Shown piece after piece: positions 10,744 to 64,000 of a stretch of 64,000 nt of DNA. The translations under genes were made by a program, and so were the position numbers. Position 1 is the first letter of the stretch. Every line of letters starts with the position of its first letter. Source of the DNA: an uncultured Gammaproteobacteria bacterium (GTDB lineage: Bacteria; Patescibacteriota; Microgenomatia; JAMCZE01); assembly GCA_964576435.1 (NCBI GenBank), contig CAZNUP010000001.1:442259-506258 (forward strand), written 5' to 3'. The notes beneath the pieces were generated by a model that made no database searches, was not told the DNA's origin, and was given only the letters and a program-made list of their open reading frames with translations.

Positions 10744-10745
10744 AT

Positions 10746-17521: not shown

Positions 17522-17523
17522 AA

Positions 17524-19513: not shown

Positions 19514-19516
19514 CTT

Positions 19517-20767: not shown

Positions 20768-20770
20768 ACT

Positions 20771-46200: not shown

Positions 46201-47963
46201 ACTACGTCATCTCCTCTTGTCAATGATAAACATAATATCTGTGGAAGCCACATTTCTGCCATTTGGCAATATCTTTTCCAGAATTCATGATTTTCTTTTG
46301 GTTGATCATGTAACGTACTGCTACTTGCGCTAGACATTGCATCTATGAAAGAAAAAAGAGTTTTAATAGTAGGAAGCTGATCAACCTTATCCCCGAGAGC
46401 TGCCCGATACTTATTAATTATTCCCTCAAAAGCCAAAAAGTTGGGGAGGGTAGTCACACTGCTTATTTGGCTTTTGTAATTGTCTGTGCATTTTCGAAGA
46501 CCTTCCTTTGTCTGAGTATTACTAATATTGTCCTCTAACCATTTCGTAGTTTCATCGATTTTACCCAGTCGCCAAGCTATTAAAGCTACATTTGTGGCTA
46601 ATTCTTGATTAAAATTATAAAGTTTGTCATCCCAAAAAACTGGTTCCTGTTTAGCTAATTTTTCTAAAATAGTGCCCTGGTTAGTGTTTCCAGGACCCAG
46701 TCCTTGTGCCATAATTTTAGCTAGCTCGCTTCCAGTTACACTTCTTCCAAAAGGAACTTCTAAGACCCTAAGCAAATCGTCAAGGGTTTTAATGCCTTCT
46801 TTATTTTCATCTGCATAGGCACGAATGGCTCTTGCTTGTATTTGGTATAGGGAATTTATTGCACCAGCAATTTCAGTCATCTTGTCTTCGTAGCCTTTTC
46901 GATATTCTCCCGTTGGTACGATACCATTTAAATCGTTTAGAAGATTTAGGAAGACTCTTATATCAGTAATTTGATGGATAGATGGAACTTCTAAATCTCT
47001 TTTTGACAAGGAAACATGGTTCAATATATATTGAAAACTAAAAGTTTGAACAGTAATTTCGCCTCTATTTCCAATCACTGCGCCTATTGCGTCGTTGACC
47101 AAATTATAGGTTCTATCAAAAGCATCATATTTATCCTGACCGTAATGGTTCCTAAAATGATTAATGTCAGAAAATAGCGCTATGGGATCAGTGGGTTTAA
47201 TTCCAAGTTTTGTAAATTCCTCTTCAAATTCTTTATCACTTTCCAGAAGGTCATTTAGCAGGTGCTCGTTAAAAGAGGGACTTTCTGGATTTATGCCAGA
47301 AAATGGTCTTCCTATCATGTCATCATCTTTCATTCGTGCAACAAGTTCATTATTCCTAGCTGACCTCGCTCGTAGTTCCCTGTTAGTTATCTCTAAAGGT
47401 AAGAGTGTCATAGATATCTCTGTATATCTCTGATCTCTATCTCTTTGGCTTTCGGTTGGATTTGCTCCCCAGACGGAATAGTATGCTAAGGGTTGCCCAT
47501 CCAAATATAGTTGACGAATTCCTGCTTGCTCTAAACTATCTAAAGAGGGAGTTTTTAAATCAGCGTCAGTTAATAATTTTGAAGCGACCCCCAAGATGTC
47601 TCGGACTCTAACTAGATTCGCCACACTTTGTTCGGGCAGTTCGAGGATAGCTTCAGAGCTTAAGAATTCAGCTTGCAGCGTATCGACGTCACTTATATTT
47701 CGAGCGCCAGCATTCCAGCGAGTATTAGGTGGATCTGCTAAAAGAAATGGCCTTTCAAGTAGAGAACTCAGCTCTTCCTTAGGTGTATCCTTGTCGATCC
47801 AAGGGTATATATGGCGTATTGTTTGGGAAACACGGTTAGTTGAAATGATTGGCCTAGCAAGGGGACTTCTTAAAATTTCCACGAGATCATACCATTCTTC
47901 AGATTCTAAAAAATCTGCAAGTAAAATGCCCGGATACTCAGCGCCCTGCTCTAGACTACGCAT
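43266..47963 (-). CDS. Giant (1565 aa) protein with two tandem MutS-domain-V-type ABC ATPase modules and a roughly 870-aa N-terminal region of unknown function
   Basis: Module 1 (about nt 44936..45356) has GSAGAGKST...LALMDEVFRGTEDNHATAII...LATHY. Module 2 (about nt 43466..43961) has GDNESGKS...LVIFDEPGSAVSSSEG...FATTHY. The S-x-F-x-x-E, DE-x-GRGT and THY spacing is MutS-like rather than transporter-like. No mismatch-binding or Smr domain was recognised. Confidence 0.6.
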   Translation of the reverse strand: MRSLEQGAEYPGILLADFLESEEWYDLVEILRSPLARPIISTNRVSQTIRHIYPWIDKDTPKEELSSLLERPFLLADPPNTRWNAGARNISDVDTLQAEFLSSEAILELPEQSVANLVRVRDILGVASKLLTDADLKTPSLDSLEQAGIRQLYLDGQPLAYYSVWGANPTESQRDRDQRYTEISMTLLPLEITNRELRARSARNNELVARMKDDDMIGRPFSGINPESPSFNEHLLNDLLESDKEFEEEFTKLGIKPTDPIALFSDINHFRNHYGQDKYDAFDRTYNLVNDAIGAVIGNRGEITVQTFSFQYILNHVSLSKRDLEVPSIHQITDIRVFLNLLNDLNGIVPTGEYRKGYEDKMTEIAGAINSLYQIQARAIRAYADENKEGIKTLDDLLRVLEVPFGRSVTGSELAKIMAQGLGPGNTNQGTILEKLAKQEPVFWDDKLYNFNQELATNVALIAWRLGKIDETTKWLEDNISNTQTKEGLRKCTDNYKSQISSVTTLPNFLAFEGIINKYRAALGDKVDQLPTIKTLFSFIDAMSSASSSTLHDQPKENHEFWKRYCQMAEMWLPQILCLSLTRGDDVVNAYVRDFWKPNFKSIGLDMNQPYVWSPEIKDEKALNRYRRQVLTNTILAWSERRGLISQSQRAELGDLQFRNYKIPTIFQELDLPTAYHVANPWTEILLNQVNFPFENTNLTLGIWTEISADRKLMRQLIQAGGSPEINYRQYPGAKKLEYVFDSHDPYMFSRWFKDLSERAKSPNNPTIALLKNIGLDKLLWSNAGAVITAAAYNDVLTPDTIKQAGLDGDMERILYVLGLVQGLRYYASKANDKGIEMSYPTDSYKIAFKNYLPQHMVFNSLRSETEKQSIVGNDIQIVPGRPLVLIGSAGAGKSTLLKSLAMSGYIHKIGGFVFANQQGEMPDFQYAMLSLNDDIGYGSRFHHHVVRVATLIDKIYSFNNETPVLALMDEVFRGTEDNHATAIIRAVLDVLAEKKVFSVLATHYGQILDLNRNGSLPEVDIRSAVFGNYELTSPTSSNYHAVLENKGYSSEFVDAFKRLVAGESLEQGFLDEDSIINGGKAGTMTTEEILTDLNLMDKYGRVQSGFAGLSTPAFPWRKDNMKDPFFDWLGAPLNSGDRENVAQIRGDFIGLSGKDEAYGRKELIMWGEIIRDLLEDQYLTRSASPEKRMEDFERFQKVFKPLISGETILATHPITQAYLHHLRKAYTESSAPTDFSYENRQDIASTVIKSLRIGLEQIDYDGDFEIVKKYVSQLRNCPDRNFVGTMTKQIEDLVNLSFASEWLNKDELPSCRVKQGTDLSIAGGVYLGDEVIGRGYGYLRQDKIKEIVPNDIEIVRGVPAIATGDNESGKSFSAKMIMFNVFLGLCTDYALAKHMTLPSYEYIASTFKASESMDNNSSSMHEAMVTAQIIKNVQVAHKAGKRTLVIFDEPGSAVSSSEGAPFAALVMKALQKSGADIFATTHYHQMQTLLQKIDGGMQTTAYGYVYNNEGGESQFKAMKNQPPGTSRGVQRALDTVNAMAREGKLKNPEEVRAVFEKARNYLNE

Positions 47964-50506: not shown

Positions 50507-50534
50507 TTGGAACCTATGTTCATTTTGCTACAAT
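50507..50534 (+). promoter_or_regulatory. Candidate promoter TTGGAA-16-TACAAT; near-leaderless
   Basis: TACAAT at 50529-50534, 8 nt upstream of the ATG at 50543. Confidence 0.35.
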
Positions 50535-50542
50535 ATCTCTAT

Positions 50543-51595
50543 ATGAAAATATGTATTGATATTAGTCAGGTTGTTTTTAAAGGCTCGGGAGTAGAAAACT
50601 ACACCAGAAATTTAGTTAGGGAAGTTTTGCGCGAAAACAAGAAGACCAACTCTCATCAATACATTCTTTTTGGAACAAGTCTTCGCCAAAAAGTACTCCT
50701 AGACGATTTTGCTTTTGAACTACGTAAAGAGGGATTAATTTTTAAAACTAGTTTTTGGGCGCTACCCCCTTCTTTTACTTCAACTGTTTGGAATCAAGTT
50801 CATCACGTAAAGATTGAACGACTAACTGGGAAAATTGATGTGTTCCATTCGTCAGATTGGACCCAACCTCCAACTAGAGCCAAAAAGGTAACCACAATTC
50901 ATGATCTAGTGACCTATAAATTCCCCGAAGCTTCAAATAAAACTATTGTAGACAATATGCGCCATAAAAATGTTTGGGTTAAAAAAGAAGTGGATGCAAT
51001 AATTGCCGTCTCCAAAAATACAAAACAAGACATTATTGATATCCTGGAAATTCCACAAAATAAAATTCATGTCATCTATGAAGGCGTGGGGGAAGATTTT
51101 CTGAATTTTAAACCTGGAAAAGATAAGACTAGCAAAAAATATATCCTTGCTATGAGCGGTGTTGGAAATAGAAAAAACACTGACCGAGTAGAAGAAGCGT
51201 TTAATCTTTTAAAGCCAAAAGGAGTAGAACTTTCAATTGTTGGTAAAAATCTTGGTTTTGTAAAACAAAGCGATTTACCAAGCCTTTATGCCAATTCCCA
51301 GGTCTTTGTTTATCCAAGTCTTTATGAAGGATTTGGGCTTCCAGTTTTAGAAGCTATGTCAGTAGGTTGTCCAGTAATAACATCAAATAACAGCAGTCTC
51401 CCAGAAGTTGGCGGTGACGCTGCAATTTATGTTGATCCGAGATCTGTGGAGGACATAAAAGATAAAATTACTGAAGTTCTGTCTTTGAGTCCTAAATCAA
51501 GAAAGTCTTTGGTTGAAAAGGGATTCGCACAAAGTAAAAAATTCTCATGGAATAAAGCTGCTAAAGAAACTATAAAGCTTTATGAAAGTCTTTGA
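50543..51595 (+). CDS. GT4 family glycosyltransferase
   Basis: Start set at MKICIDIS. EGFGLPVLEAMSVGCPVITSNNSSLPEV motif. Confidence 0.75.
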   Translation: MKICIDISQVVFKGSGVENYTRNLVREVLRENKKTNSHQYILFGTSLRQKVLLDDFAFELRKEGLIFKTSFWALPPSFTSTVWNQVHHVKIERLTGKIDVFHSSDWTQPPTRAKKVTTIHDLVTYKFPEASNKTIVDNMRHKNVWVKKEVDAIIAVSKNTKQDIIDILEIPQNKIHVIYEGVGEDFLNFKPGKDKTSKKYILAMSGVGNRKNTDRVEEAFNLLKPKGVELSIVGKNLGFVKQSDLPSLYANSQVFVYPSLYEGFGLPVLEAMSVGCPVITSNNSSLPEVGGDAAIYVDPRSVEDIKDKITEVLSLSPKSRKSLVEKGFAQSKKFSWNKAAKETIKLYESL

Positions 51596-52652
51596 TTTGC
51601 TTGTTGCATTGCTTTTAACTACATTCCTTTTTCTTCACATAAACAATCAGAAGGTAAATATAACCCAACTTGAAAATCGCTATCAAAACTCCCAATACGT
51701 AAACCCAAGTGGCTATAAATATTTCATTGATGACCCAGAAGTCTACCAAGTTGCTGGCTGGCACTACATTCACGGAGAAAGTCCAGATAAGGTCAATTTT
51801 GAACACCAGCCATTAGCTAAATATCTAATTGGCTTGTCGCTAATGGTATTTCAGAATGCATCCTATTTACAGTTAATAATCGCTTTTTTGTGCCTCTTTT
51901 TAACAATTAAGCTCTCACGAATAGCTTTTGGACAATCTCTGTGGGCATTTATACCAGCTGTATTTCTAACAGCTGACCCATTGTTTCAAGAACAATCCCG
52001 TCTGGTTTATTTGGATATTTATCAACTCCTGGCAATACTTTTGCTCTTTTTCTTAGTCTTAAAGAAGCGTTTTGTGCTTTCAATGTTAGCTTTAGGATTA
52101 GTTCTGTTATCAAATTCCGTTTGGTCAGGAATGATTACTGGGTTTGTAGCACTTTTCTTCGTTTTTATAAAAGACCGAAAAAACCTTTGGAATTTTCTAA
52201 AGTTTGTCCCAATTACAATCTTGGTGTATTTAGCTGGATATCTAGTTTTCCTCTTAAAAAACTCCCCAATCGACTTTATTATGCTCCACATAAAACAAAT
52301 AAGGTTTTATTTGTCATATGTTCCCGAATATCCAAAAGGTGAAGTATTTAGGGTAATTTTCCAAGGGTCCTGGCGCAAATGGTTTGGAGATCATGGTTTC
52401 ATGCCAGCAGAGCCTTGGTCAATTTTGTGGCCAATTGGCTTAGTGCTTTCCTATGTTCCAATCATTTCTAAAAACAGATCTCCTCTGGTTGTGCTTTTCA
52501 CTTTATGGATTTCGGTCTGGCTCATTTTCCTAAGTACAAAACTAATTTTCCCCCGCTATTTGCTAGTAATCCTGCCGTTTATCTACATTTTGGCTATAAT
52601 GGGTATTCATGACTATTGGGATAAATGGCAACGAAGCAAACGTAAAAGTTAG
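51582..52652 (+). CDS. GT-C fold membrane glycosyltransferase, PMT_2-like
   Basis: FEHQPLAKYLIGLSLMVF (hPPL motif) and about 9 TM segments. Confidence 0.5.
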   Translation: MKVFDLLVALLLTTFLFLHINNQKVNITQLENRYQNSQYVNPSGYKYFIDDPEVYQVAGWHYIHGESPDKVNFEHQPLAKYLIGLSLMVFQNASYLQLIIAFLCLFLTIKLSRIAFGQSLWAFIPAVFLTADPLFQEQSRLVYLDIYQLLAILLLFFLVLKKRFVLSMLALGLVLLSNSVWSGMITGFVALFFVFIKDRKNLWNFLKFVPITILVYLAGYLVFLLKNSPIDFIMLHIKQIRFYLSYVPEYPKGEVFRVIFQGSWRKWFGDHGFMPAEPWSILWPIGLVLSYVPIISKNRSPLVVLFTLWISVWLIFLSTKLIFPRYLLVILPFIYILAIMGIHDYWDKWQRSKRKS

Positions 52653-53697
52653 GGTTGGAAGTGGTCAATATGCTTATGAACTTCTAACTCACCTAAAATC
52701 CTCAGATTCCTATAGGGTTTACCTTGAATCCAAGCCTCTAGACGACATGCCTAAAAACTTTTCCTATGAAGTTTTTGGTCCAAAAAAACTTTGGACTTTA
52801 ACTGGCCTTCAAAAAAGACTAATTGAAGAAAAGACTAAAGGAACTTTGCCAGACGTATTTTTCACTCCTGGTCACTATGCGCCTCTTTACATGCCAACTA
52901 AATCAGTAATCTCAATTATGGATTTAGCCTTTGAAAAGTTTAAGGAATACTATAAAAAACAGGATCTCTACCAACTCAAATATTGGACCATGACAAGTGC
53001 TATGGGGGCAAGTAAGATCTTGACCATTTCCGAGCATTCAAAGAAAGATATTTGCTCCCTTTATGCAGTTAGTCCAGATAAGGTTGTAGTTACCTATCCA
53101 GGATATGATAAAGATCGTTTCTCCCCAAAAGTTAAACCCGGAAAATTTAAAGGGAAATACTTCGTTTTCTTAGGGACTCTTCAACCTAAAAAAAATATCG
53201 AAAGACTTGTTGAGGCATTTAGTAGGATTGAAGACGATTCTATAAAACTCGTTATCGTCGGCATGATTAATGAAGGTCGTGGTGGTTGGATGAACCAGTC
53301 TATTTTTGACAAAGTAAAAGACCTAAGGCTAGAAGATAGGGTCATTTTTACTGGATATGTTCCAGATAATGAAGTTCCAGGTATTTTTAAAGGGGCATTG
53401 GCCTATGTTTTACCAAGTCTCTATGAGGGTTTTGGAATCCCTCCAATTGAAGCAATGGCTACAGGAGTGCCGGTGGTGGTTTCTAAGGTGAGTTCACTTC
53501 CTGAAATTTGCGGTGAAGCTGCAATCTACATAGAAAACCCCTATGATATAGATAGTATTAAAAGGGGTTTAGACCACGTTTTGAAAATGACAAAGACAGA
53601 AAGAGAAAAAAGAGTCGATTTGGGTGAAAAATGGGTAAAACGGTATAATTGGGAGGATACAGCCAAAAAGACTCTGGAGGTTTTAAAAAATGTTTAA
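52609..53697 (+). CDS. GT4 family glycosyltransferase
   Basis: [35 protein letters not shown] motif. Confidence 0.75.
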
Positions 53698-54286
53698 AGA
53701 TAAGTACGGAAACAAGCTCACAACTAAAGAAGCCCTGCCGAAAATTAATAATAGGATAGGTAGCTATATGCTCGATCTTGAGCTCATGATTTTGACCTTT
53801 GTTGGCAATATCCCTTCCCATTCTCTAAGAAGACTGTTTTATAGATCTGCAGGCATGAAAATAGGCAAGGGAACAAATATTCATATGTGGGCAAGGTTTT
53901 ATGAGCCCAAAAATATTGAAATTGGTGAGGATTCTCTTATTGGAGATAATGCATTTTTGGACGGCAGAGATAAGCTAAAAATTGGTAATCATGTAGGGAT
54001 TGCTTCACAAGTTCTTATCTATAACTCAGAGCACAACGTTAATTCAGAAGAATTCGAAGGCATCTATGGTCCAGTAGAAATTGGTGACTACGTTTTTATT
54101 GGCCCCAGAGTGACTATATTACCAGGTGTAAAAATTGGTAAAGGTGCAGTTATAGCGGCAGGAGCTGTAGTTACAAAAGATGTTCCCGAATTTGCTATAG
54201 TTGGCGGCGTGCCAGCGACAAAGATTAGTGACCGCAAGAATAAAGATCCCAAATATGTTCTTGGAAGGGCTCGCTTGTTTCAATAA
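53690..54286 (+). CDS. Hexapeptide-repeat (LbH) sugar O-acetyltransferase (WbbJ/WcaF-like)
   Basis: Tandem hexapeptide repeats [36 protein letters not shown]. Confidence 0.75.
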
Positions 54287-57200
54287 TGAGAAAAGCACTT
54301 AATTGGTTAGATGACAATATTATTACCCTAATTGCCGGGTTCCTCTTAATTTTTATTCCTCTTTATCCAAAAATCCCAGCAGCTGATATTCTTCCAGGTT
54401 ACATTGTCAGGATTAGATTAGAAGACTTCTTTATCTTAGCCTCAATTCTTATTTTTGGAATCCAGTTTTTAAGAAAGAAAGTAAAAATCGGCTGGGATTT
54501 ACCCTCAATTGGCATTATTGTCTACATTGTAATAGGACTAATATCAGTCTTTTGGTCAATTTTTGTTGCCCAAACAGTCCCTATGGAGTTTGTCCATATT
54601 GGAAAAACTGCTCTTCATTGGCTAAGAAGAATTGAATACTTTTCACTCTTCTTTATTTTTTTTGGAACTGGCCGGGATGTCAAAAAGGTAAAGATCATTA
54701 TGACCATTTTCTTCCTAACAGTAGCCGCCGTGACTATTTACGGTTATGGTCAAAAATATCTTGCCTGGTGCGCTTTTTCCACAATGAATCGGGAATTTTC
54801 TAAAGGCGCGTGTCTTTACCTAACGGAGCACTCCCGTGTTCTTTCAACTTTTGGAGGACATTACGATCTGGCTGCCTACTTAGTTATTGCCCTCTCCCTG
54901 GCTTGGAGTTTTTTCTTTGGCCTAAAAAACAAGTTTGCCAAAATTGCCATGGGGGTAGTAATTTTGTGCGGCCTATGGCTTTTAATTCTAACTGCTTCCC
55001 GTATTTCCTTCGGTGCCTATTTAGTAGGTCTTGCTGTAGTTGTCTTTATCTGGTCATTCAAAAAAGGAGTTGGGTGGGGAATAAGTAGGGGATTTGTTGC
55101 TCTTTTCTTAAGTATTCTCTTGATGTTATCTTTTGGTGACTTGTCAGATAGATTCTTAACTCTTGTTCGCTTCGATGAACGTTTTGGTGGAATTCGCCAG
55201 ATCCTTTTAGCAAGTAGTATCAAACCCCCTGCTGGTGCGATTTTAGTTGGCGATGTGACTTCAAGGTCTGATCAGCCACCAACCCCAATAAAACCAGGAG
55301 ATGTCACAGGTGATGAAGCTCCTCTCTTTGTTAATGTCAAACAAGCAGATGGTTCCATAAAAAGAGTAGAAAAGCCACGAACCTACTCAAAATGTGCTTT
55401 AAGGTTTGACCTTTCCACTTGTATTAGACTTGAATCCACCTGGCCCAGAGCATTTGGAGCATTTGAAAAAAGTCCGCTCTTTGGAACTGGATATGCCACA
55501 CTAACAAAAGCCCAAATTGAAGACTTCACTGAAGCAGAGTCAACAGACAACGACTATTTGCGCTCTCTTGGTGAAACCGGTGCTCTTGGTTTCTTGGCCT
55601 TCTTTGGAGTAGTTGTTGGTATGGCAATAATTGCCTTTAGAAGCCTCTCAGGTATTAAAGACCCATTTGTATTCTCGCTAGTTGCTGGTTTTATAGCTTT
55701 TGTTGTTGGAATTCTTGCTAATGCCGCTTACATTGACGTGTTCGAATCGAGTAAGGTCGCATATGTTTTCTGGGGACTTTCCGGTTTAACGCTTGGCACC
55801 ATTTATGCCCTGAGATCAAAAATTGCCGAGGATAGAGAACCATTCAGACTGAATTTTGATTGGAAGAGATATCTAGCAGCGTTGAAGAAATTTTTTCTTT
55901 CCGATGTCCCTTGGGTTTTATTACTTGTTGTCTTAGTTATTGTCACTCATGCCTACAATCCAGCAACTAGTAAATTCACTTTCGATGGCCCAATTGCCGA
56001 CTGGCATTCTTGGCGCCAAGCAGACACCTCATCAGTATCAAGGAGATTTGATAGAGATGGAATAAATCTGTTATATCCAACCTTTGACGATGTCTCATCA
56101 ATTCCCTCAGGTTTACCAAACCCCAATGGTTTTAGATACGTCGAATTCCCAATCTACAACGCAGCAACTGTCATGGTCAAAAAGTTCATGCCAGAACTAA
56201 GTATTGAAGCAGCAGGTAGAACAACCTCAGCCTTAGCTACAGCCTTTTCCGCTCTTTTCCTATTCCTAATAGCCAGAAGAATTTTTGGAAGAAGAGCAGG
56301 CTATTTGGTAATGATTACCTATGCTCTTATTCCCTATAACCTGTTTTACGGAAGATCAATTCTCCCAGATCCTACCATGGTAACCTTCTCTCTTGGATCA
56401 ATTTACTTTGCATTAAGATATGCCACAAAATCAAAAATCTACAACCTAGTTTTGAGTTTAATTTTTGGAGCGATTGCCCTTTTAGTTAAGCCTTACGCCT
56501 TCTTTTTACTTGCTCCAATAGCTTATATTTTGATTGCCGCTTTTGGATTTTCAAAGAAATTCTTAATTGTCTCTGCTTGTTATGCTCTTGCAGTTATCCC
56601 CCTTCTTTGGTGGCGCCAGTTTATTACAGCTTATCCAGCAGGAATTCCAGCAAATGACTGGCTCTTTAATGGTGATGGAATTAGGTTTAAAGGAGCTTTT
56701 TGGCAATGGATTTTTGCCGATAGAATTGGAAGATTGATTTTAGGATTCTGGGGACTCATTCTTCTAGCGTTTGGAATAGTTAGAAAACCACAAGAAAAGT
56801 TTGGCTGGTTCCCCTTAATTTTCCTTTTAACATCTCTTTGCTATGTATTTGTCTTTGCAACCGGCAATGTCCGTCATGACTATTACCAAATTCTTTTAGT
56901 CCCATCTCTTGCTCTTCTAGTTGGACTTGGAGTTGATTCACTTTTGAAAGGTAATTTTGTCTCCAAAGGCTTGGCTGTCATAGCTTTTATCTTTATGGTT
57001 GCCTTTGGTTGGTACCAGGTAAGAGACTACTACAATGTTAATCATCCTGAAATTGTTAAAGCCGGACGCGCTTTCGATAAACTCGTTGATAATCCAAAAG
57101 TAACAGTTATTGCTCCATATATGGGAGATACTGCCTTCCTTTATCAAACAAACCACAGAGGCTGGCCCATTATGGAAGGCTCAATTGATGACATGATTGG

Positions 57201-57396
57201 AAAAGGTGCACAGTTCTATGTCTCAACAACTTATGACGATGTAACTAATGACATCTTGAAGTATTCAGCCACCCAAGCAGTTCAAGATGAAAGAAAAGCA
57301 TATAAAGTTGAACCATATCCCTTTACAACAATTGCAAAAACCAAAGACTATGTCATTGTTCAATTAGTTCCAACAGAAAAACTTCCAGAAAGGTAA
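54286..57396 (+). CDS. Fusion (1036 aa) of an N-terminal O-antigen ligase/Wzy_C-like domain (also the O-oligosaccharyltransferase family) and a C-terminal GT-C (PMT_2-like) membrane domain
   Basis: N-domain (about nt 54286..55725) has LTASRISFGAYLVG and STDNDYLRSLGETGALGFLAF, which match the Wzy_C 'aHNsyLqil.E.G..G' region. C-domain (about nt 55786..57396) has a second polytopic block with a WRQADTSSVSRRF loop. Confidence 0.55.
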   Translation: MRKALNWLDDNIITLIAGFLLIFIPLYPKIPAADILPGYIVRIRLEDFFILASILIFGIQFLRKKVKIGWDLPSIGIIVYIVIGLISVFWSIFVAQTVPMEFVHIGKTALHWLRRIEYFSLFFIFFGTGRDVKKVKIIMTIFFLTVAAVTIYGYGQKYLAWCAFSTMNREFSKGACLYLTEHSRVLSTFGGHYDLAAYLVIALSLAWSFFFGLKNKFAKIAMGVVILCGLWLLILTASRISFGAYLVGLAVVVFIWSFKKGVGWGISRGFVALFLSILLMLSFGDLSDRFLTLVRFDERFGGIRQILLASSIKPPAGAILVGDVTSRSDQPPTPIKPGDVTGDEAPLFVNVKQADGSIKRVEKPRTYSKCALRFDLSTCIRLESTWPRAFGAFEKSPLFGTGYATLTKAQIEDFTEAESTDNDYLRSLGETGALGFLAFFGVVVGMAIIAFRSLSGIKDPFVFSLVAGFIAFVVGILANAAYIDVFESSKVAYVFWGLSGLTLGTIYALRSKIAEDREPFRLNFDWKRYLAALKKFFLSDVPWVLLLVVLVIVTHAYNPATSKFTFDGPIADWHSWRQADTSSVSRRFDRDGINLLYPTFDDVSSIPSGLPNPNGFRYVEFPIYNAATVMVKKFMPELSIEAAGRTTSALATAFSALFLFLIARRIFGRRAGYLVMITYALIPYNLFYGRSILPDPTMVTFSLGSIYFALRYATKSKIYNLVLSLIFGAIALLVKPYAFFLLAPIAYILIAAFGFSKKFLIVSACYALAVIPLLWWRQFITAYPAGIPANDWLFNGDGIRFKGAFWQWIFADRIGRLILGFWGLILLAFGIVRKPQEKFGWFPLIFLLTSLCYVFVFATGNVRHDYYQILLVPSLALLVGLGVDSLLKGNFVSKGLAVIAFIFMVAFGWYQVRDYYNVNHPEIVKAGRAFDKLVDNPKVTVIAPYMGDTAFLYQTNHRGWPIMEGSIDDMIGKGAQFYVSTTYDDVTNDILKYSATQAVQDERKAYKVEPYPFTTIAKTKDYVIVQLVPTEKLPER

Positions 57397-57398
57397 CC

Positions 57399-58622
57399 AT
57401 GAGGATTTTAATGCTCACCCTCTATTTGCCTTATCCGCCAAACTCCGGCGGTCAAATTCGCTCCTACAACCTAATCAAGCATCTCTCCAAAAAACATGAC
57501 ATTACTCTGGTTTCTTTTATTAAAAAAGGTGAAGAAAAATATGCCAAAGAAATGGAAAAATACTGTAAAGAAATTCTCTATTTCTATAGATCAGATAGTC
57601 CCTTCGATCTAAAAAATGTCATTAAAACTGGCTTAAGTTTCTATCCGTTCCTAGTGATGAGAAATTTCTCACCACTTGGGAAAAAAGTCATTGCTCAAAA
57701 GATGAAAACGGAAAAGTTTGATCTAGTCCATGTAGAGACTTTTTACTTAAGACCCCACATTCCAAATAACATAAAAATCCCCGTCGTTTTAGTTGATCAA
57801 ACAATTGAATTTGTTGTTTACCAGCACTATGTTCAGACAATGAAGAACTGGCTCATGAAACCTCTCTACTATATTGATGTATTAAAACTTAAATATTGGG
57901 AAACAAAGTTCTGGAAAGAAGCTAAAAGGGTTATTGCAGTTTCCGATGCAGACAAACAAACTATGCAAAAAAATGTTCCTGGACTTAAAGTTGATATTAT
58001 TCCAAATGCTCCTGGAGACGATCTTTCAGGACTTTATGATCCAGAAGAGAAAGCCAAGTTTAAAACACCAATAATTTTCTATCAAAGTAATTTCCTCTGG
58101 ATGCAAAATGTTGAAGGAGCAGAATTTCTTGCAAAAGAAGTATTCCCGTTAGTTCTCAAGAAATATCCAAATGCAATTTGCCGAATCGTTGGACAAAACG
58201 TAGAAAGTAATGCTCATTTTAAAATTGATCAACTAAAAGGCAAAAATGTTGAGGTCATAGATCTTGATAAATCTGACATCAAAGGTGTTATTAAAGCTTA
58301 TAAAGAAGGAACAATTTTAGTAGCGCCTCTAAAAGGCCCTGGTGGAACTAGACTTAAAATATTGGGTGCTATGTCAGCTGGCGTTCCAGTGGTGACTACT
58401 CCTGTTGGAGCAACTGGAATAGAAGCTAAAAATGGCAAAGAAATTTTAATTGGCCAAACCAAAGAAGAGTTGGCAAATTTAGTTATAAAATTAATTGAAG
58501 ATAGGAAACTTTATAAAGACATAATTATTAATGCCAAGAAATTAATCAAAGAAAAATATGATTGGGGTAAAGTTGCTGAAGATTTAAGTAAAATTTATGA
58601 AGAAGCAGCCAGGAAAAATTGA
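57399..58622 (+). CDS. GT4 family glycosyltransferase
   Basis: GPGGTRLKILGAMSAGVPVVTTPVGATGIEAKNGKEILI, a GT-B C-domain. Confidence 0.7.
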   Translation: MRILMLTLYLPYPPNSGGQIRSYNLIKHLSKKHDITLVSFIKKGEEKYAKEMEKYCKEILYFYRSDSPFDLKNVIKTGLSFYPFLVMRNFSPLGKKVIAQKMKTEKFDLVHVETFYLRPHIPNNIKIPVVLVDQTIEFVVYQHYVQTMKNWLMKPLYYIDVLKLKYWETKFWKEAKRVIAVSDADKQTMQKNVPGLKVDIIPNAPGDDLSGLYDPEEKAKFKTPIIFYQSNFLWMQNVEGAEFLAKEVFPLVLKKYPNAICRIVGQNVESNAHFKIDQLKGKNVEVIDLDKSDIKGVIKAYKEGTILVAPLKGPGGTRLKILGAMSAGVPVVTTPVGATGIEAKNGKEILIGQTKEELANLVIKLIEDRKLYKDIIINAKKLIKEKYDWGKVAEDLSKIYEEAARKN

Positions 58623-59481
58623 ATTATCGATTATCATCCTCACATTTAATAATGAGACTGATCTCCCAGTCTGCTTAAATTCAATTTATGAAAGCGGGTT
58701 TTTAAAAAACTGGGAAGTAATTGTTATTGATAACAACTCCGAAGATAAAACAGTTTCCAATTTAAAAGACAACCTCAAAAAATATGAGAATTTAACAATC
58801 ATCGAAAACAAAGAAAATCTGGGTTTTGGCCCTGCAAATAATTTAGCAGCCAAAAAAGCTAATGGTGACTATGTGCTTTTCTTAAATCCAGACACCAAGT
58901 TGGAAAAAGACGCTATCGGTGGACCCTTAAATTATTTAAAGGAACACATTGGTGTAGGGGCAGTGAGTGCTAAGTTGGTTTTAGGTAATGGAAAGATAGA
59001 TTTGACTTGTCATAGAGGTGAACCAACTCCCTGGAACTCATTTTGCTACTTTTCGGGACTATCTAAATTGTTTCCAAAAAGCGCCACATTTTCTGGTTAT
59101 TATCTAGGAAATTTAGATTTGACCAAGGAATCTGAAGTTGAAAGTATTAACGGCGCCTATTTTATGCTCCCAAAAGAGGTGGGTACAAAGCTTAGCTGGT
59201 TTGATGAAGATTTTTACTGGAAAGGTGAGGACTTGGATTTATCTTACCGGATTAAAGAGCTAGGCTTAAAGATTGTTTACCTTCCAGAATTTGTCGTCCA
59301 CCACTACAAGGGTTCATCTAAAGGTCATAAACGGGGTAGTAAAACCCTAGAATCAAGATTCGAAGTCATGCGCCTTTTCTATGACAAACATTACAAAAAT
59401 AAATACCCTTCCTGGATGAGGAATTTTGTGCTAGCTGGAATTAAAGCACGTTATTTACTAGCTTATATAACAGGCAAATGA
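58597..59481 (+). CDS. GT2 family glycosyltransferase
   Basis: LSIIILTFNNETDL...VIVIDNNSEDKT and LNPDTKL. Confidence 0.7.
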   Translation: MKKQPGKIELSIIILTFNNETDLPVCLNSIYESGFLKNWEVIVIDNNSEDKTVSNLKDNLKKYENLTIIENKENLGFGPANNLAAKKANGDYVLFLNPDTKLEKDAIGGPLNYLKEHIGVGAVSAKLVLGNGKIDLTCHRGEPTPWNSFCYFSGLSKLFPKSATFSGYYLGNLDLTKESEVESINGAYFMLPKEVGTKLSWFDEDFYWKGEDLDLSYRIKELGLKIVYLPEFVVHHYKGSSKGHKRGSKTLESRFEVMRLFYDKHYKNKYPSWMRNFVLAGIKARYLLAYITGK

Positions 59482-59972
59482 ACATTGTAATTGATGCCAG
59501 ATTTTGGGGAGGAAAACATACCGGCCTTGGAATTTACACTAAAAATTTGGTCGAGAACCTAGAAAAGATCGACAAAAAGAACACCTATACACTCCTAGTG
59601 CGAGAAAAGGTTGAAAGCACATTTAATCAAATTATTGTCGATATCGATGCCTATTCATTAAAAGAACAATTTTCCCTTTTGCCAATTCTCTACAAATTAA
59701 AACCAGATTTAGTTCATTTCCCCAGTATTAATATCCCAGTTCTCTATTTTCGTAAATATGTAGTCACAGTTCACGATCTTATTAAACACGATTCAAAAGG
59801 AACAGACACAACAACCAAGTCGTCACTAACATACTGGGTTAAATACCTGGGGTACCGTTTTGTTTTTTGGTGGGCAACCACTTTTGCTAAAAAAATAATT
59901 GTTCCCTCGAATGCCGTAAAGAATAGGTTAAATAAACCAAACGTAATTGTGACATATGAAGCTGCCGAATAA
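59478..59972 (+). CDS. GT4 glycosyltransferase N-terminal (Glyco_trans_4-like) half; split or frameshifted gene, part 1
   Basis: MNIVIDARFWGGKHTGLGIYTKNL is a typical GT4 N-domain. It ends at a stop 17 nt inside the next ORF. Confidence 0.5.
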   Translation: MNIVIDARFWGGKHTGLGIYTKNLVENLEKIDKKNTYTLLVREKVESTFNQIIVDIDAYSLKEQFSLLPILYKLKPDLVHFPSINIPVLYFRKYVVTVHDLIKHDSKGTDTTTKSSLTYWVKYLGYRFVFWWATTFAKKIIVPSNAVKNRLNKPNVIVTYEAAE

Positions 59973-60465
59973 ATACGCGCTCTATATTGGAAACGCTTAT
60001 CCTCATAAAAACCTTGAGTTTTTAATTAAAGCATGGGAGGGAATTGACATGCCTTTAGTTTTAGCAGGAGGAAGGTCAGTCTTTTATGACAGACTAGAAA
60101 AAAAGATTACCTCAAAAAACATTATTCATGTGGGTTTTGTGGAAGATCTAACAGATCTTTACAAAAATGCCGAAGTTTTCATTTTTCCAACTCTCATGGA
60201 AGGTTTCGGTCTTCCACCTCTTGAAGCAATGAAGCATAAAGTTCCAGTAGTTTGTTCAGATATCCCGGTACTGAGGGAGGTTTTAGGAGATGCCGCTCTC
60301 TATTTTGATCCAAGAAATCCCCAAGATTTAAAAGAAAAACTCGAAGAAGTAAAAGAAAAAAGATCAGAATTAATTAAAAAAGGACTCGATCAGGTTAGTA
60401 AATATTCTTGGCAAAAGATGGCCGAGGAAACACTCAAGGTTTATGAAAGTTGCGCTAGTTTATGA
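59956..60465 (+). CDS. GT4 glycosyltransferase C-terminal (Glycos_transf_1) half; split or frameshifted gene, part 2
   Basis: KYALYIGNAYPHKN...EGFGLPPLEAMKHKVPVVCSDIPVLREV. It is in the +1 frame relative to part 1. Confidence 0.5.
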   Translation: MKLPNKYALYIGNAYPHKNLEFLIKAWEGIDMPLVLAGGRSVFYDRLEKKITSKNIIHVGFVEDLTDLYKNAEVFIFPTLMEGFGLPPLEAMKHKVPVVCSDIPVLREVLGDAALYFDPRNPQDLKEKLEEVKEKRSELIKKGLDQVSKYSWQKMAEETLKVYESCASL

Positions 60466-61516
60466 CCGCGTGAACAAATGGGGTGGGGCTGAGTCAGTGC
60501 TTTTAGCACTTCACGAGGTTTTTCCAGATGCACCACTTTACACCTCAGTCTATGCAAAAGATAAAACTCCCTGGGCGGATGTATTTGATGTTAAACCTTC
60601 TTTCTTGCAAAAACTTCCTCTTCCAAAAGATAAACATGAATACTACCCATTCTTAATGGGTCCCGCCTTTGAAGCATTTAATTTTGATGGCTTCGATATA
60701 GTAATTTCCATAACCCACGAATCAGCAAAAGCAGTGATCACCAAACCCGAAACCATGCACATTTGCTACTGTTTGACTCCGACAGGCTATCTATGGTCAG
60801 GAGTCGATTCCTATTTAAAACCAGGTCTTAAAAAAACTCTTTTGTCTCCAGTTTTAAGATACATGCGCTTTTATGACAAAATAATCTCCAAAAGACCAGA
60901 CCACTTTATTGGCATCTCAAAAACCGTTCAGGAAAGAATCAAAAAATATTATGGTTTAGAAAGTAGTTTAGTTTACCCGCCCGTAACACTTGGTAAAGTT
61001 TCAAAGCCTGGTGATTTCTTTTTGATTGTTTCAAGGCTTGTCCCCAATAAACGAATTGATATTGCTGTTGAAGCTTTTAATAAGCTAGGTTCTCCTCTTA
61101 AAATCATAGGAACAGGTAGAGAATTTGAAAATCTTAAAGGAAGGGCTAAATCCAATATTGAATTTCTAGGTCATTTGACAGATACAGAGGTTAACAAATA
61201 TTATGAAAGCTGCAAAGCTTTTATTCTGCCAGGTCTCGAAGATTTTGGTATCACACCAGTTGAAGCTCAAAGCTATGGTAAACCAGTAGTAGCATTTAGA
61301 GGTGGGGGAGCAACTGAAACAGTTATCGAAGAAAAAACTGGGTTTTTCTTTGACAAACAGTCACCGGAGTCGTTAGTAGAGACAATTAAAAAAGCTAAAT
61401 TTGATACTATAGACCCAAGGGACTGCGCTAAAAACGCAGTTAAGTTTTCTAAAGATAGGTTTAAAGAAGAATTTAGGGAAAAGATAGAAGCTGAATGGAA
61501 ATCTTATAAAAGATGA
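60443..61516 (+). CDS. GT4 family glycosyltransferase
   Basis: MKVALVYDRVNKWGGAESVL N-terminus and EDFGITPVEAQSYGKPVVAF. Confidence 0.75.
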   Translation: MKVALVYDRVNKWGGAESVLLALHEVFPDAPLYTSVYAKDKTPWADVFDVKPSFLQKLPLPKDKHEYYPFLMGPAFEAFNFDGFDIVISITHESAKAVITKPETMHICYCLTPTGYLWSGVDSYLKPGLKKTLLSPVLRYMRFYDKIISKRPDHFIGISKTVQERIKKYYGLESSLVYPPVTLGKVSKPGDFFLIVSRLVPNKRIDIAVEAFNKLGSPLKIIGTGREFENLKGRAKSNIEFLGHLTDTEVNKYYESCKAFILPGLEDFGITPVEAQSYGKPVVAFRGGGATETVIEEKTGFFFDKQSPESLVETIKKAKFDTIDPRDCAKNAVKFSKDRFKEEFREKIEAEWKSYKR

Positions 61517-62154
61517 AAAGACTTTATATTTTTAAGCGAGTTCTTGATCTTGTTGCTGGTTCAATTCTTTTAATCCTTCTCTCCCCGATTATGGTTCTAA
61601 TTGCTATTGCAGTTAAACTTGATTCCGCTGGTCCCGTTTTTGCAGATACGCCCATGAGATCGGGAAAAGATGGAAAGCTGTTTAGGCTTTATAAATTCCG
61701 TTCTATGATTCCAAACGCCCAAGAGCTTTTGATGACCGACCCAAAAATGAAAAAACTTTTTGAGGAGTACAAAAAAAATAACTACAAATTGAAAAACGAT
61801 CCCCGTGTTACAAGAGTAGGTTCATTTATAAGAAAGCATTCAATTGATGAATTTCCACAACTCTTTAACGTTTTAGGTGGAACAATGAGCCTTGTTGGTC
61901 CGAGGCCTTATTACGAGTTTGAAATCAAAGAGCAAATCCAAAAGTATCCTCACTTGAAAGACGACATTGAAGCTATGCACACTGTGCTTCCAGGAGTAAC
62001 TGGTGAATGGCAAGTCTCGGGAAGAAGTGAAATTGATTTTGAAAAAAGAATTCAAATGGATGCCGACTACGCTAGAAGAAAAAACATATTAGACGACATA
62101 GTAATCTTAATCAAAACTCCTTGGGCTGTCATATCAGGCAAAGGGGCTTATTAA
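61513..62154 (+). CDS. Initiating polyprenyl-phosphate sugar-1-phosphate transferase (small monotopic PGT, PglC/WbaP C-domain-like)
   Basis: [36 protein letters not shown] (re-entrant helix), [25 protein letters not shown] and the catalytic dyad region. Confidence 0.85.
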
Positions 62155-62234: not shown

Positions 62235-64000
62235 ATGGAAGAATTAAGAGTAGAAACAGTTGAAGAAAGTATCAAAGATGGGGAAGGTGGATCCCCACAA
62301 AAACCCATGCAGGAAAAGAAAAAACTCCCAAAGAAAAAGATTTTAGTTGTCCTAGGCATTGTCCTTGGAGTCTTTTTAGTTGTCTTTGGTTTCTTAGGTT
62401 TAATTCTTGGAATCCCCCTCTATAAAACCTATCAAGACGGAATGGTAGCCTATTCAGAAGCTAAAACCATCAATGTTGCTCTTAAAGATCAGGATGTCAA
62501 AAAACTAAATACGGCAATAACCAATACAAACGCAAAATTGGCAGTTGTCCAAAATGACCTAAAAGGTGTGGCTTGGGCCACTAATTTACCAATTGTCGGA
62601 GCCTACATTTCAGATGCAACGCACGGAGCAAACGCTGCTTCCTACGGTTTAGAAGCAGGCCAAGTTGCTGTAAAAGCTCTTGAACCTTATGCTGATCTTC
62701 TAGGCCTTGATGGCAAAGCAAAAGCTGGGAATGGAACAACCGAAGATAGAATTTCCAAATTAGTTGAAACTCTAGATAAAATCACACCTCAAATCGACGC
62801 CATCTCTAAAAAGATGGACAAAGTAGAAACTGAAGTTGCTTACATTGATCCAAATAGATACCCGGTGTCTTTTGGTGGCAAACAAATTAGAGGAAATATC
62901 ATTGAGGCTAAAGAACTTGTGGCCTTGGCAAGCCAATTCCTAAAAGAAGCAAAACCGCTAGCAAAAGACATGCCAGCGCTTCTTGGGGCAGACAAAGAAG
63001 CTAAGTACATGGTTATCTTCCAAAACGACAAAGAGCTAAGACCAACTGGTGGATTCATAACTGCCTATGCAGTCTTTAATATTAACAAAGGGAAAATTAG
63101 TCTTGATAAATCAGATGACATTTACAAATTAGATGACACAATAACTAAAAAAGTCTCACCTCCGGAACCAATCAGTAAATACTTAAATGTATTCCAGTGG
63201 AGATTAAGAGATGCTAACTTCTCTCCCGATTATGGAAGCTCCGCCAAGACTTTCCTAGATATTTATAACTCCTCAACCAGCAAGAAAGATGTTAAAGGTG
63301 TAATCGCCATGGACACTCAAGGTCTAGTAGGTTTGATGGACGTTTTAGGACCAGTGAATATTTATGGCACTAACTTTACAACTCAAAAAGTTCCAGCTTG
63401 CGATTGCCCAATGGTTGTTTATGAACTCTTAAAGCAAGCCGGTCAACCAAGAAACTATTGGACCGACAACCGAAAAGACATGATTGGAGTTCTTCTCCAA
63501 GCAATTATGAAGAAAGCGCTTGATGCCCCAAGTGAAGTTAATGGTCCACTTTTCCAACAAGGATTAAAACTCGCCAATGAAAAACATATATTATTCTTCT
63601 TGACTGATGAGAACGATCAAAAAGGTGTGGAGAGTCTTGGATTTGCAGGGAAGATCAAAACATCAGACGGAGACTATTTGCACATTAATGATGCCAATCT
63701 TGGTGGAGCAAAGTCCAATCTCTATATCACTCAAGCAGTCAAACAAGACGTTAAGATTACAGATTCTGGTGCCGACGAAATCTTAACAATTGATTACAAA
63801 TACCCAAGACAAGGTGATAATTGTTCATTAGAAAGAAAAGAAGGTTTGTGTCTAGCTGGAATCTACAGAGACTATTTGAGAATCTATTTACCAAAAGGGT
63901 CTAAAGTAAATGAAGTTAGAGGATTCGAAACCGCTAAACCTGAAATCTATGAAGATCTTGGCCACACAGTTGTTGCTGGATTCTTTACAGTTGTCCCACA
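62235..64000 (+). CDS. DUF4012-like secreted/membrane-anchored protein (3' end truncated by the window edge)
   Basis: Open frame from the ATG at 62235 to the window end, absent from the ORF track because there is no stop. N-terminal TM ILVVLGIVLGVFLVVFGFLGLIL. YMVIFQNDKELRPTGGFITAYAVFNINKGKI matches the DUF4012 'lqNnaElRptGGfig' core. Confidence 0.5.
   Translation, partial: MEELRVETVEESIKDGEGGSPQKPMQEKKKLPKKKILVVLGIVLGVFLVVFGFLGLILGIPLYKTYQDGMVAYSEAKTINVALKDQDVKKLNTAITNTNAKLAVVQNDLKGVAWATNLPIVGAYISDATHGANAASYGLEAGQVAVKALEPYADLLGLDGKAKAGNGTTEDRISKLVETLDKITPQIDAISKKMDKVETEVAYIDPNRYPVSFGGKQIRGNIIEAKELVALASQFLKEAKPLAKDMPALLGADKEAKYMVIFQNDKELRPTGGFITAYAVFNINKGKISLDKSDDIYKLDDTITKKVSPPEPISKYLNVFQWRLRDANFSPDYGSSAKTFLDIYNSSTSKKDVKGVIAMDTQGLVGLMDVLGPVNIYGTNFTTQKVPACDCPMVVYELLKQAGQPRNYWTDNRKDMIGVLLQAIMKKALDAPSEVNGPLFQQGLKLANEKHILFFLTDENDQKGVESLGFAGKIKTSDGDYLHINDANLGGAKSNLYITQAVKQDVKITDSGADEILTIDYKYPRQGDNCSLERKEGLCLAGIYRDYLRIYLPKGSKVNEVRGFETAKPEIYEDLGHTVVAGFFTVVP

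Follow-up and report, generated by a model that had tools for sequence, protein, structure and literature searches.

The 64,000-nucleotide stretch of Microgenomates DNA analyzed here (the window; contig CAZNUP010000001.1 of assembly GCA_964576435.1) contains, at nt 54286–57396 of the + strand, a complete gene for a membrane protein of 1036 residues in which a Wzy_C-type module is followed by a GT-C/PMT_2-type glycosyltransferase module. Whether such a two-module protein is genuine, what each module does, and why the two are joined in one chain are the questions raised by this locus. The open reading frame (ORF), its Pfam domains, an identical gene in an independent assembly and its orthologues all show that the gene is real. 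The best reading of the protein, to which we give an even chance of being right, is a coupled extracytoplasmic polymerase and GT-C partner module making a conserved envelope glycan. Coordinates refer to the window and to its + strand unless marked (−).

The fused gene and its architecture

The gene is a single uninterrupted ORF with an ATG start. Its start overlaps the stop of the preceding acetyltransferase gene by 1 base, and the following gene, for a GT4 glycosyltransferase, starts 2 bases past its stop. Pfam finds exactly two domains in the protein, each above the curated threshold: Wzy_C (PF04932) at residues 225–440 (nt 54958–55605), with 53.8 bits versus a cut-off of 31.7, and PMT_2 (PF13231) at residues 642–776 (nt 56209–56613), with 56 bits versus 26.1. 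No NCBIfam model matches the fused protein. A preliminary description, made from the sequence without database searches, had proposed these two domains in one polypeptide. Both profile hidden Markov models and both folds recovered by modeling (see below) bear this out, and the N-terminal half scores well above the Wzy_C threshold, failure of which would have told against the proposal.

A long ORF of this kind could also be two genes wrongly joined by sequencing or assembly, and in many relatives the halves are indeed separate genes, sometimes in frame with one stop between them. However, the identical protein sequence, with identical neighbors, is encoded on an independently assembled Logan contig (L001), 25 other fused orthologues form one clade, and the linker is continuous in the family alignment (A1). 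A frameshift, a lost stop codon and an assembly chimera were ruled out on these grounds, and the chance of an artefact is negligible. The hidden stop or frameshift for which the preliminary description had left room is absent; the independent identical ORF is joined here by full-length homologues. Searching a large protein collection gave more than 1000 homologues of the fused protein. Of these, the top 120 all have about 1000–1060 residues and full-length coverage, and those named by source are Patescibacteria, Microgenomates and Gottesmanbacteria metagenome-assembled genomes.

A sequence search of the PDB with the fused protein and with a 51-sequence family profile returned nothing at E ≤ 10; therefore the fold was modeled from the family alignment and compared by structure. 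The AlphaFold2 model built from A1 has a mean predicted local distance difference test score (pLDDT) of 81.3 and a predicted template modeling score of 0.69, with the membrane cores mostly above pLDDT 90. Secondary structure and hydropathy lay the protein out as an N-module of about 12 transmembrane (TM) helices (residues 1–508; nt 54286–55809), a K/R-rich basic linker (about residues 509–530; nt 55810–55875) and a GT-C module, the C-module (residues ~526–1036; nt 55861–57393). By the positive-inside rule the linker would be cytoplasmic and the conserved loops of both modules would face outward. The model thus describes a GT-C_B module joined to a GT-C_A module, following the terminology of Alexander and Locher adopted in PMC10920833.

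The N-module and its putative active-site residues

The N-module has a predicted WaaL/Wzy-like (GT-C_B) fold. Its best solved match is WaaL (7tpj_B, score 24.8, 352 of 403 residues aligned), followed by FtsW (14.4) and RodA (12.3–12.5), so that a WaaL/SEDS-like polytopic fold is recovered. The most conserved outer loop, between TM5 and TM6, spans residues 155–196 (GQKY..AFSTMNREFSKG..STFGGHYDLA; nt 54748–54873), in which N168, E170, H192 and D194 are nearly invariant throughout the family.

In WaaL, arginines bind the two phosphates of undecaprenyl diphosphate (Und-PP) and a His activates the acceptor (PMC10920833, citing the 7TPG work). Across clan GT-C1 the ligases keep this His; in its place an essential Asp is found in the SEDS proteins and either Asp or Glu in the families of inverting Wzy-type polymerases (Meitil et al. 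2024, PMC10920833). The PglS-type O-oligosaccharyltransferase (O-OTase) depends on a His, H324, and its H324A variant serves as an inactive control.

The corresponding residues were mapped by their coordinates on the shared Pfam model, with an N-half profile of greater diversity, and with an alignment of WaaL from Escherichia coli (Ec) to the solved WaaL of C. metallidurans (Cm). Residues 205–354 of E. coli K-12 WaaL cover positions 6–146 of the Wzy_C model and residues 225–440 of the fusion cover positions 2–149, while Ec R215, R288 and H338 equal Cm R191, R265 and H313. Aligning the full-length family profile to the single E. coli WaaL by hhalign gave no mapping. R239 (nt 55000–55002) pairs with Ec R215 (LTASR/LTQTR) with high posterior in the hmmsearch alignment (LiltasRtsf/LALTQTRATL), and Pfam coordinates give the same counterpart. 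R381 (nt 55426–55428) is matched to the second diphosphate-binding Arg, Ec R288, by comparison of the motif R-L-x-x-W...SP-x-x-G-x-G rather than by a scored alignment.

The final motif, ESTDNDYLRSLGETGALGF at residues 418–436 (nt 55537–55593), aligns without gaps to Ec HLHNEIIEAGSLKGLMG and Cm HAHNDIVEAASTTGIPG. Its core reads S-T-D-N-D-Y-L-R-S-L-G-E-T-G-A-L-G in the fusion, H-L-H-N-E-I-I-E-A-G-S-L-K-G-L-M-G in Ec and H-A-H-N-D-I-V-E-A-A-S-T-T-G-I-P-G in Cm. D421 occupies the position of the WaaL/PglL catalytic His (Ec H338, Cm H313) according to the Pfam coordinates and the Ec/Cm alignment, and a separate hhalign path gives the same pairing with low confidence. R239 and R381 are invariant in 25 fused and 46 split orthologues (71/71), and D421 is present in 70 of the 71, the remaining one having a gap. 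D421 and R381 are kept in every paralogue class of the N-module.

The N-module therefore has the two diphosphate-binding arginines of WaaL (GT121), R381 by motif comparison, together with an invariant Asp, D421, in place of the catalytic His. The His of PglL/PglS-type enzymes (PglS H324) is likewise replaced by Asp at the aligned position. One or two Arg with Asp or Glu at the ligase-His site is the pattern of inverting Wzy-type polymerases, and R239, R381 and D421 reproduce it. For the SEDS family (GT119), no FTSW_RODA_SPOVE Pfam match was obtained at E ≤ 1. By its residues, then, the motif appears to be a true Wzy_C motif in the polymerase/SEDS state and not in the ligase/OTase state. Because an invariant Asp at the ligase-His site is the state published for SEDS proteins and polymerases, the N-module is read as a non-ligase, and it looks more like a sugar-chain polymerase than a ligase. 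The Wzy_C signature quoted in the preliminary description is thus genuine, but it is of the non-ligase form, and the assignment of the N-half to the WaaL/PglL type does not hold at the catalytic residue.

The N-module could still be a WaaL/PglL-type ligase or O-OTase that transfers a glycan en bloc to protein (S-layer, pilin) or lipid, after which the C-module would extend or decorate it from polyprenyl-phosphate donors. The Pfam Wzy_C family spans ligases and O-OTases, both diphosphate-binding arginines are retained, and the best solved structural match is WaaL; we know of no solved Wzy-type polymerase of the clan with which to compare. Against this stands the replacement of the His of WaaL (H313/H338) and PglS (H324) by an invariant Asp in every member examined, the polymerase/SEDS state according to PMC10920833. 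The gene context, described below, also bears on this alternative.

The C-module

The fold of the C-module is ArnT-like and of the GT-C_A type; its first outer loop is long, and it ends in a small globular domain. ArnT (5f15_A) is the closest structural match (24.7, 423 of 541 residues aligned), followed by ALG12 (24.4), AglB (23.2), Pmt4 (22.7), STT3B (20.1), ALG9 (19.3), AftA (17.7) and PglB (16.2); an ArnT/PMT/STT3-like fold is thereby recovered. No STT3 Pfam match was obtained for the fusion at E ≤ 1, and the likeness to STT3/PglB/AglB (GT66) is at the level of the fold only.

The first helix is followed by a loop of ~85 residues, unusually long in comparison with ArnT (GT83) and the GT39 PMT_2 enzymes. 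The loop carries the motif ADWHSWRQADT (residues 571–581; nt 55996–56028), a candidate catalytic site formed by D572, H574, R577, Q578 and D580, which is invariant in the 25 fused and 46 split orthologues. Its acidic residues D572 and D580, conserved in 71/71, are probably catalytic. Right after TM1, where the C-module has its family-specific motif, the window's stand-alone PMT_2 paralogues show the classic 'DE', and they are only marginally similar to the C-module (best E ~1e-4). The other invariant positions of the C-module are E620, R777, R813, N861, H864, Y866, Y867, Q868 and D948, the last lying in the C-terminal alpha/beta globular domain (residues 917–1036; nt 57034–57393). From its sequence the C-module looks active and looks to be a distinct GT-C subfamily.

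Since R239, R381 and D421 on one side and D572, H574, R577, Q578 and D580 on the other are invariant in fused and split forms, both modules look active. One of them might instead be catalytically dead and serve the other as a scaffold, chain-length ruler or acceptor-binding platform. Pseudo-enzymes are common partners of membrane glycosyltransferases, and the class B paralogues described below retain only the first ~165 columns of the GT-C module. Yet the charged and polar outer-loop residues of both modules are invariant down to ~31–33% identity, which makes a dead module very improbable.

Fused and split forms across the Microgenomates

One genome per GTDB species was scanned with the pattern TMNRE[FY][SA]K. 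Relatives are encoded in at least 547 species-representative genomes of the Microgenomates superphylum, and named records include Gottesman-, Curtiss-, Woese-, Pace-, Beckwith-, Roizman- and Chisholmbacteria. ORFs were called in the best 80 loci and in five earlier homologue loci (L002–L006) and compared with the window protein. One full-length ORF is present in 25 non-redundant loci; two adjacent ORFs on the same strand, an N-half and a C-half, are present in 46 of the 80. The search for homologous fusions that the preliminary description had suggested thus returned 25 further fused orthologues.

The split N-half genes encode ~430–640 residues covering query residues 1 to ~507, and the split C-half genes ~460–580 residues covering ~545 to ~990. 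The gene break accordingly falls at the presumed cytoplasmic linker (query ~507–545). The 46 N-half genes end in TAA (20), TGA (19) or TAG (7). The C-half genes have their own ATG or GTG, and many pairs overlap by 4 nt (ATGA/GTGA) or differ in frame. Stop-codon recoding was considered for the split genes and ruled out, since all three stops are used, the C-halves have their own starts and many lie in another frame. The same features establish the split forms as genuine separate genes.

In a neighbor-joining tree of 72 sequences, the 26 fused proteins, the window's included, form one clade nested among split forms. This nesting indicates one fusion event with the fused state derived, so that by the tree the fusion arose once, in a Gottesmanbacteria-like clade of Microgenomates. 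The fused architecture is the norm in that clade, and separate adjacent genes are found in most other Microgenomates. Because the two genes invariably neighbor each other, in many cases with translational coupling, and are joined into one in a single clade, their products almost certainly cooperate. The case is one of a Rosetta-stone fusion, in which the N and C halves almost certainly work together as obligate partners, and the two modules probably make physical contact.

Many of the records in loci L008–L087 are Microgenomates by gene content and synteny, yet they are titled 'uncultured Gammaproteobacteria' or 'uncultured Pseudomonadales'. Single records in the same set are titled Limisphaerales, Omnitrophota or Doudnabacteria. 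All these records are probably mislabeled or mis-binned.

The wider N-half family

The N-half alone was scored against 1.84 billion representatives at 50% identity, yielding 776 proteins at E ≤ 1e-3 and 248 at E ≤ 1e-30. So few matches indicate a compact family distinct from ordinary WaaL/Wzy_C proteins. Among the best 150 matches, 71 are of stand-alone size (430–899 residues) and 63 have at least 900 residues, only 2 of the 63 carrying a C-half of the window type.

Class A (24 of the best 150, ~1000 residues) has a different polytopic C-terminal module without a Pfam match. After its first helix this module has a 'DD' motif, and hhalign shows it to be distantly homologous to the C-half (probability 96.9%, E 1.4e-10, 341 columns). 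One class A gene lies in the same operon type, adjoining a split-type pair of a 518-residue ORF and a 489-residue PMT_2 gene (L088, 8001–14928). Class B (28 of the best 150, 1080–1270 residues) has a few TM helices followed by a large soluble domain, in which Metallophos was matched in 2 of 4 proteins scanned. Lys replaces R239 in this class, and its TM part matches the first ~165 columns of the C-half with an hhalign probability of 70.6%. One class B gene, in a Pacebacteria genome, adjoins ABC-transporter genes and DUF6311 (L089, 8001–11816). The N-module appears, by these homologies, to have been joined repeatedly to GT-C-like partners.

The operon and its conserved gene order

The fusion lies in a tightly packed operon on the + strand. 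Upstream, between nt 50507 and 54286, are genes for a GT4 (50507–51595), a 7-TM protein (51582–52652), a second GT4 (52609–53697) and a hexapeptide acetyltransferase (53690–54286). Downstream, between nt 57399 and 62154, are a GT4 (57399–58622), a GT2 (58597–59481), a GT4 split into N and C ORFs (59478–59972 and 59956–60465), a further GT4 (60443–61516) and a Bac_transf initiating phosphoglycosyltransferase (61513–62154). The DUF4012 gene that follows (62235–64000) extends past the window end; on the longer contig L001 it encodes 652 residues (10169–12127) and is followed by RecO. A GT2 with one C-terminal hydrophobic segment (41048–41935) and a stand-alone PMT_2 GT-C protein (41932–43242) form a pair at nt 41048–43242, and a Wzx-type flippase (Polysacc_synt; 36053–37327) is encoded 18 kb upstream of the fusion.

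The order GT4-GT4-acetyltransferase-(GT2)-[N|C]-GT4-GT2-GT4-GT4-Bac_transf-DUF4012-RecO is kept down to ~33% identity. In 50 loci with at least 8.5 kb of downstream flank, the fusion or pair is followed by GT4 in 48, GT2 in 46, DUF4012 in 43, Bac_transf in 42 and RecO in 32. In 46 loci with at least 8.5 kb of upstream flank it is preceded by GT4 in 44, a stand-alone PMT_2 in 44, the acetyltransferase in 43 and GT2 in 39, and a Wzx homologue lies within 8.5 kb upstream in 10. The operon adjoins housekeeping genes (RecO, an aminoacyl-tRNA synthetase) in genomes of ~0.7–1.1 Mb. This conserved order beside housekeeping genes in very small genomes suggests that the operon makes a core envelope polymer of Microgenomates and not a variable O-antigen-like glycan.

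No other polymerase candidate was found in the conserved operon, the window encodes no Wzy_C-type protein besides the N-module, and no Wzz-type co-polymerase was found in the examined loci. The remaining unassigned polytopic proteins of the window have a GT-C-like 'DE' or 'DD' after TM1, except for the 7-TM protein encoded at 51582–52652. That protein has 356 residues, no Pfam match and counterparts in only a handful of the related loci (L017, L027, L067). It might be a flippase, acyltransferase or polymerase that escaped detection.

These surroundings can be set against the ligase/O-OTase alternative. The conserved operon has an initiating phosphoglycosyltransferase, in several genomes a Wzx, and no polymerase candidate other than the N-module, which fits a ligase poorly. 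Bacteria of the candidate phyla radiation (CPR) are, to our knowledge, without lipopolysaccharide (LPS) and hence without a lipid A-core acceptor. In favor of a ligase, the window has a Wzm/Wzt pathway with Wzt_C and a glycosyltransferase-methyltransferase fusion, a type of pathway that ends with a ligase; one Asp-bearing class B paralogue adjoins an ABC transporter; and six to seven glycosyltransferases could build one long non-repeating glycan. Taken with the residue evidence, we consider a ligase or O-OTase rather unlikely.

Several neighbors merit separate mention. In comparisons with the PDB, the neighboring GT2 enzymes, the upstream one included, have ArnC, DPMS and GtrB among their matches, but the alignments cover only ~100 N-terminal residues and higher scores go to generic GT2 enzymes; the GT2 and PMT_2 pair, kept upstream of the operon in most genomes, is a possible source of a polyprenyl-phosphate-sugar donor. 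The DUF4012 gene comes directly behind that of the phosphoglycosyltransferase in 43/50 loci. Its product has one TM helix, at the N-terminus, and a large outer domain with long helical hairpins followed by alpha/beta and beta-sandwich domains and two conserved Cys pairs. The model of the DUF4012 protein (pLDDT 80.4) matches only generic helical bundles in the structure comparison; the protein may be a co-polymerase, a ligase or a scaffold. The split GT4 (59478–60465) consists of N-domain and C-domain ORFs of 164 and 169 residues with a 17-nt overlap. It is split in the same way in L001, in a 59% identical relative (L008) and in the distant L048, and most relatives have one gene of 368–372 residues. 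Either the split is a frameshift that is tolerated, or the two ORFs form a GT-B enzyme of two chains like Alg13/Alg14.

Proposed mode of action

On the preferred reading, a polymerase coupled to a GT-C partner, Bac_transf would prime undecaprenyl phosphate, four to six GT4/GT2 enzymes and the O-acetyltransferase would complete the repeat unit in the cytoplasm, and the Wzx flippase would export it. The N-module would hold the Und-PP-linked oligosaccharide through R239 and R381 and polymerize with inversion, D421 serving as the putative base that deprotonates the acceptor hydroxyl of the next unit. The same polymer would be the substrate of the C-module, which would draw on a lipid-linked donor. 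Most likely the C-module would add a sugar, perhaps a branch, from a polyprenyl-monophosphate donor possibly made by the conserved upstream GT2; less likely it would transfer the finished chain to an acceptor, as proposed for WpsJ of Lactococcus lactis. Within this reading a decorating C-module is somewhat more likely than a ligase C-module. Fusion or translational coupling would fix a 1:1 ratio and keep both active sites adjacent in the membrane. We infer the donor identities, polymerase over ligase activity, the order of action and the acceptor.

The preliminary description had suggested that a glycan is attached first and then immediately extended. Several orders of action are possible; ligation before extension is only one of them, and not the best supported.

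A further alternative is a polymerase-ligase machine. In it the N-module polymerizes, and the C-module transfers the finished lipid-linked polymer en bloc to a wall polymer, peptidoglycan, lipid or protein, like WpsJ after WpsI or an enzyme of the STT3/PglB type; we regard this as unlikely. A more specific form is doubtful: a physically coupled machine in which the N-module hands the growing chain in the plane of the membrane to the GT-C module, which attaches it en bloc to the final acceptor. If true, such a coupled polymerase-ligase would provide a route for anchoring the main Microgenomates envelope glycan independent of WaaL and LCP, and would be the first case of a Wzy-pathway glycan polymerized and ligated by one polypeptide.

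Comparison with known systems

WaaL (GT121; PDB 7TPG/7TPJ) differs from the N-module not only in its catalytic His (H313 Cm, H338 Ec), for which the N-module has the invariant Asp. The large loop of the N-module carries an insertion of ~70 residues, the N-module is always paired with or fused to a GT-C_A enzyme, and its host presumably has no LPS. PglL, PilO and PglS share the Wzy_C domain and the GT-C_B fold and use Und-PP-glycans, and they differ from the N-module in having the catalytic His (PglS H324) where it has Asp. The SEDS proteins RodA and FtsW (GT119) are much weaker structural matches than WaaL; their partner is a transpeptidase, whereas here it is a glycosyltransferase, and the operon product would be a heteropolysaccharide and not peptidoglycan.

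The inverting Wzy-type polymerases of clan GT-C1 (GT125–GT129), compared through their description in PMC10920833, share the pattern of Arg with Asp or Glu. In part the operon context is shared as well, with an initiating phosphoglycosyltransferase, several cytoplasmic glycosyltransferases, an O-acetyltransferase and, in some genomes, Wzx. Those families are not described as coupled or fused to another GT-C enzyme, and unlike them the present family showed no Wzz-type co-polymerase.

Fusion of a Wzy_C-type membrane module with a second glycosyltransferase has a precedent in WadA of Brucella and Mesorhizobium, a bimodular O-antigen ligase (GT121 plus GT25) read as coupled action on the same glycan. 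The partner in WadA is a globular GT25 using nucleotide sugars, whereas here it is a polytopic GT-C enzyme with a lipid donor on the outer face. The membrane module of WadA is a GT121 ligase, whereas the N-module carries Asp where a ligase has His.

The pellicle pathway of L. lactis has WpsG as its Wzx, and a lipid-linked repeat unit, once flipped, is acted on in turn by the polymerase WpsI and the GT-C transferase WpsJ (PMC9574508). The likeness, by description, is that of a monoderm in which a polymerase and then a GT-C-fold enzyme act outside the membrane. WpsI and WpsJ are separate proteins and are not reported fused. Initiation also differs, since L. lactis uses a C55-P (monophosphate) intermediate made by GacI/J-type enzymes and the present operon has a Bac_transf phosphoglycosyltransferase. 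The Bac_transf family yields a diphosphate-linked intermediate.

The rest of the glycan island

Glycan synthesis occupies nearly all of the 64-kb window, an island in a genome probably below 1 Mb; the exact protein is found on a 709,729-bp contig. At least eight PMT_2-type or GT-C-like polytopic proteins are encoded, at 61–1560, 1557–3128, 8188–9483, 9454–10743(−), 10734–12302, 39951–41033 and 41932–43242 and by the fusion. The ORFs at 28861–30372 and 34564–36081, with DD or DE after TM1, are probably GT-C-like too. Many GT2 and GT4 genes and several methyltransferases are present. Rfam and tRNA scans of the window gave no matches, and no LPS genes were seen in it.

At 18689–22498, Wzm (ABC2_membrane) and Wzt (ABC_tran with a Wzt_C carbohydrate-binding domain) are followed by a glycosyltransferase-methyltransferase fusion. 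The set looks like a glycan pathway that depends on an ABC transporter and has a methylated terminator on its chains, resembling WbdD or S-layer glycan systems, and hence a second export route in the island. At 16103–18651 an MBOAT acyltransferase adjoins an AlgX-like SGNH protein, a pair typical of extracytoplasmic polysaccharide O-acetylation. A gene for a 1565-residue protein at 43266–47963 (−), whose sole match is to a MutS domain V/ABC-type ATPase at residues ~885–1013, separates the GT2/PMT_2 pair from the fusion operon. The two blocks are contiguous in related genomes, and the gene therefore looks like an insertion. A GT6 (25416–27128; 570 residues) and a fucosyltransferase-type GT11 (32604–33494) are unusual-looking for a CPR bacterium. 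Both families are best known from the synthesis of histo-blood-group antigens.

Significance

In databases the family is named 'glycosyltransferase family 39 protein' or 'O-antigen ligase family protein'. Each name misses half of the protein, and 'O-antigen ligase' is probably wrong on the chemistry. Literature searches on this domain combination, on CPR O-antigen ligases and on Gottesmanbacteria glycosyltransferases found nothing relevant. The architecture thus appears uncharacterized, as supposed at the outset, but it is not singular, given its relatives in hundreds of genomes. Already known are the fusion of a Wzy_C-type module with a glycosyltransferase, in WadA, and a GT-C enzyme that acts after a polymerase, in the L. 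lactis pellicle. What is new is that a GT-C_B and a GT-C_A enzyme are directly fused or obligately paired, that this is kept across a CPR superphylum, and that the active site is of the Asp type.

Few enzymes of bacterial glycan assembly are as poorly understood as the Wzy-type polymerases, of which only one has been characterized biochemically (PMC10920833). The conserved adjacency across a CPR superphylum, the clean fusion and the further, independent-looking GT-C fusions provide strong comparative evidence for a fixed complex in which a Wzy-like enzyme works alongside another glycosyltransferase that uses a lipid donor. For cryo-EM and for coupled-activity assays, the fused form is a natural single-chain construct. 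The surface chemistry of Microgenomates is essentially unknown, and the family, without overturning current concepts, offers a lead into both the CPR envelope and the enzymology of Wzy-type proteins.

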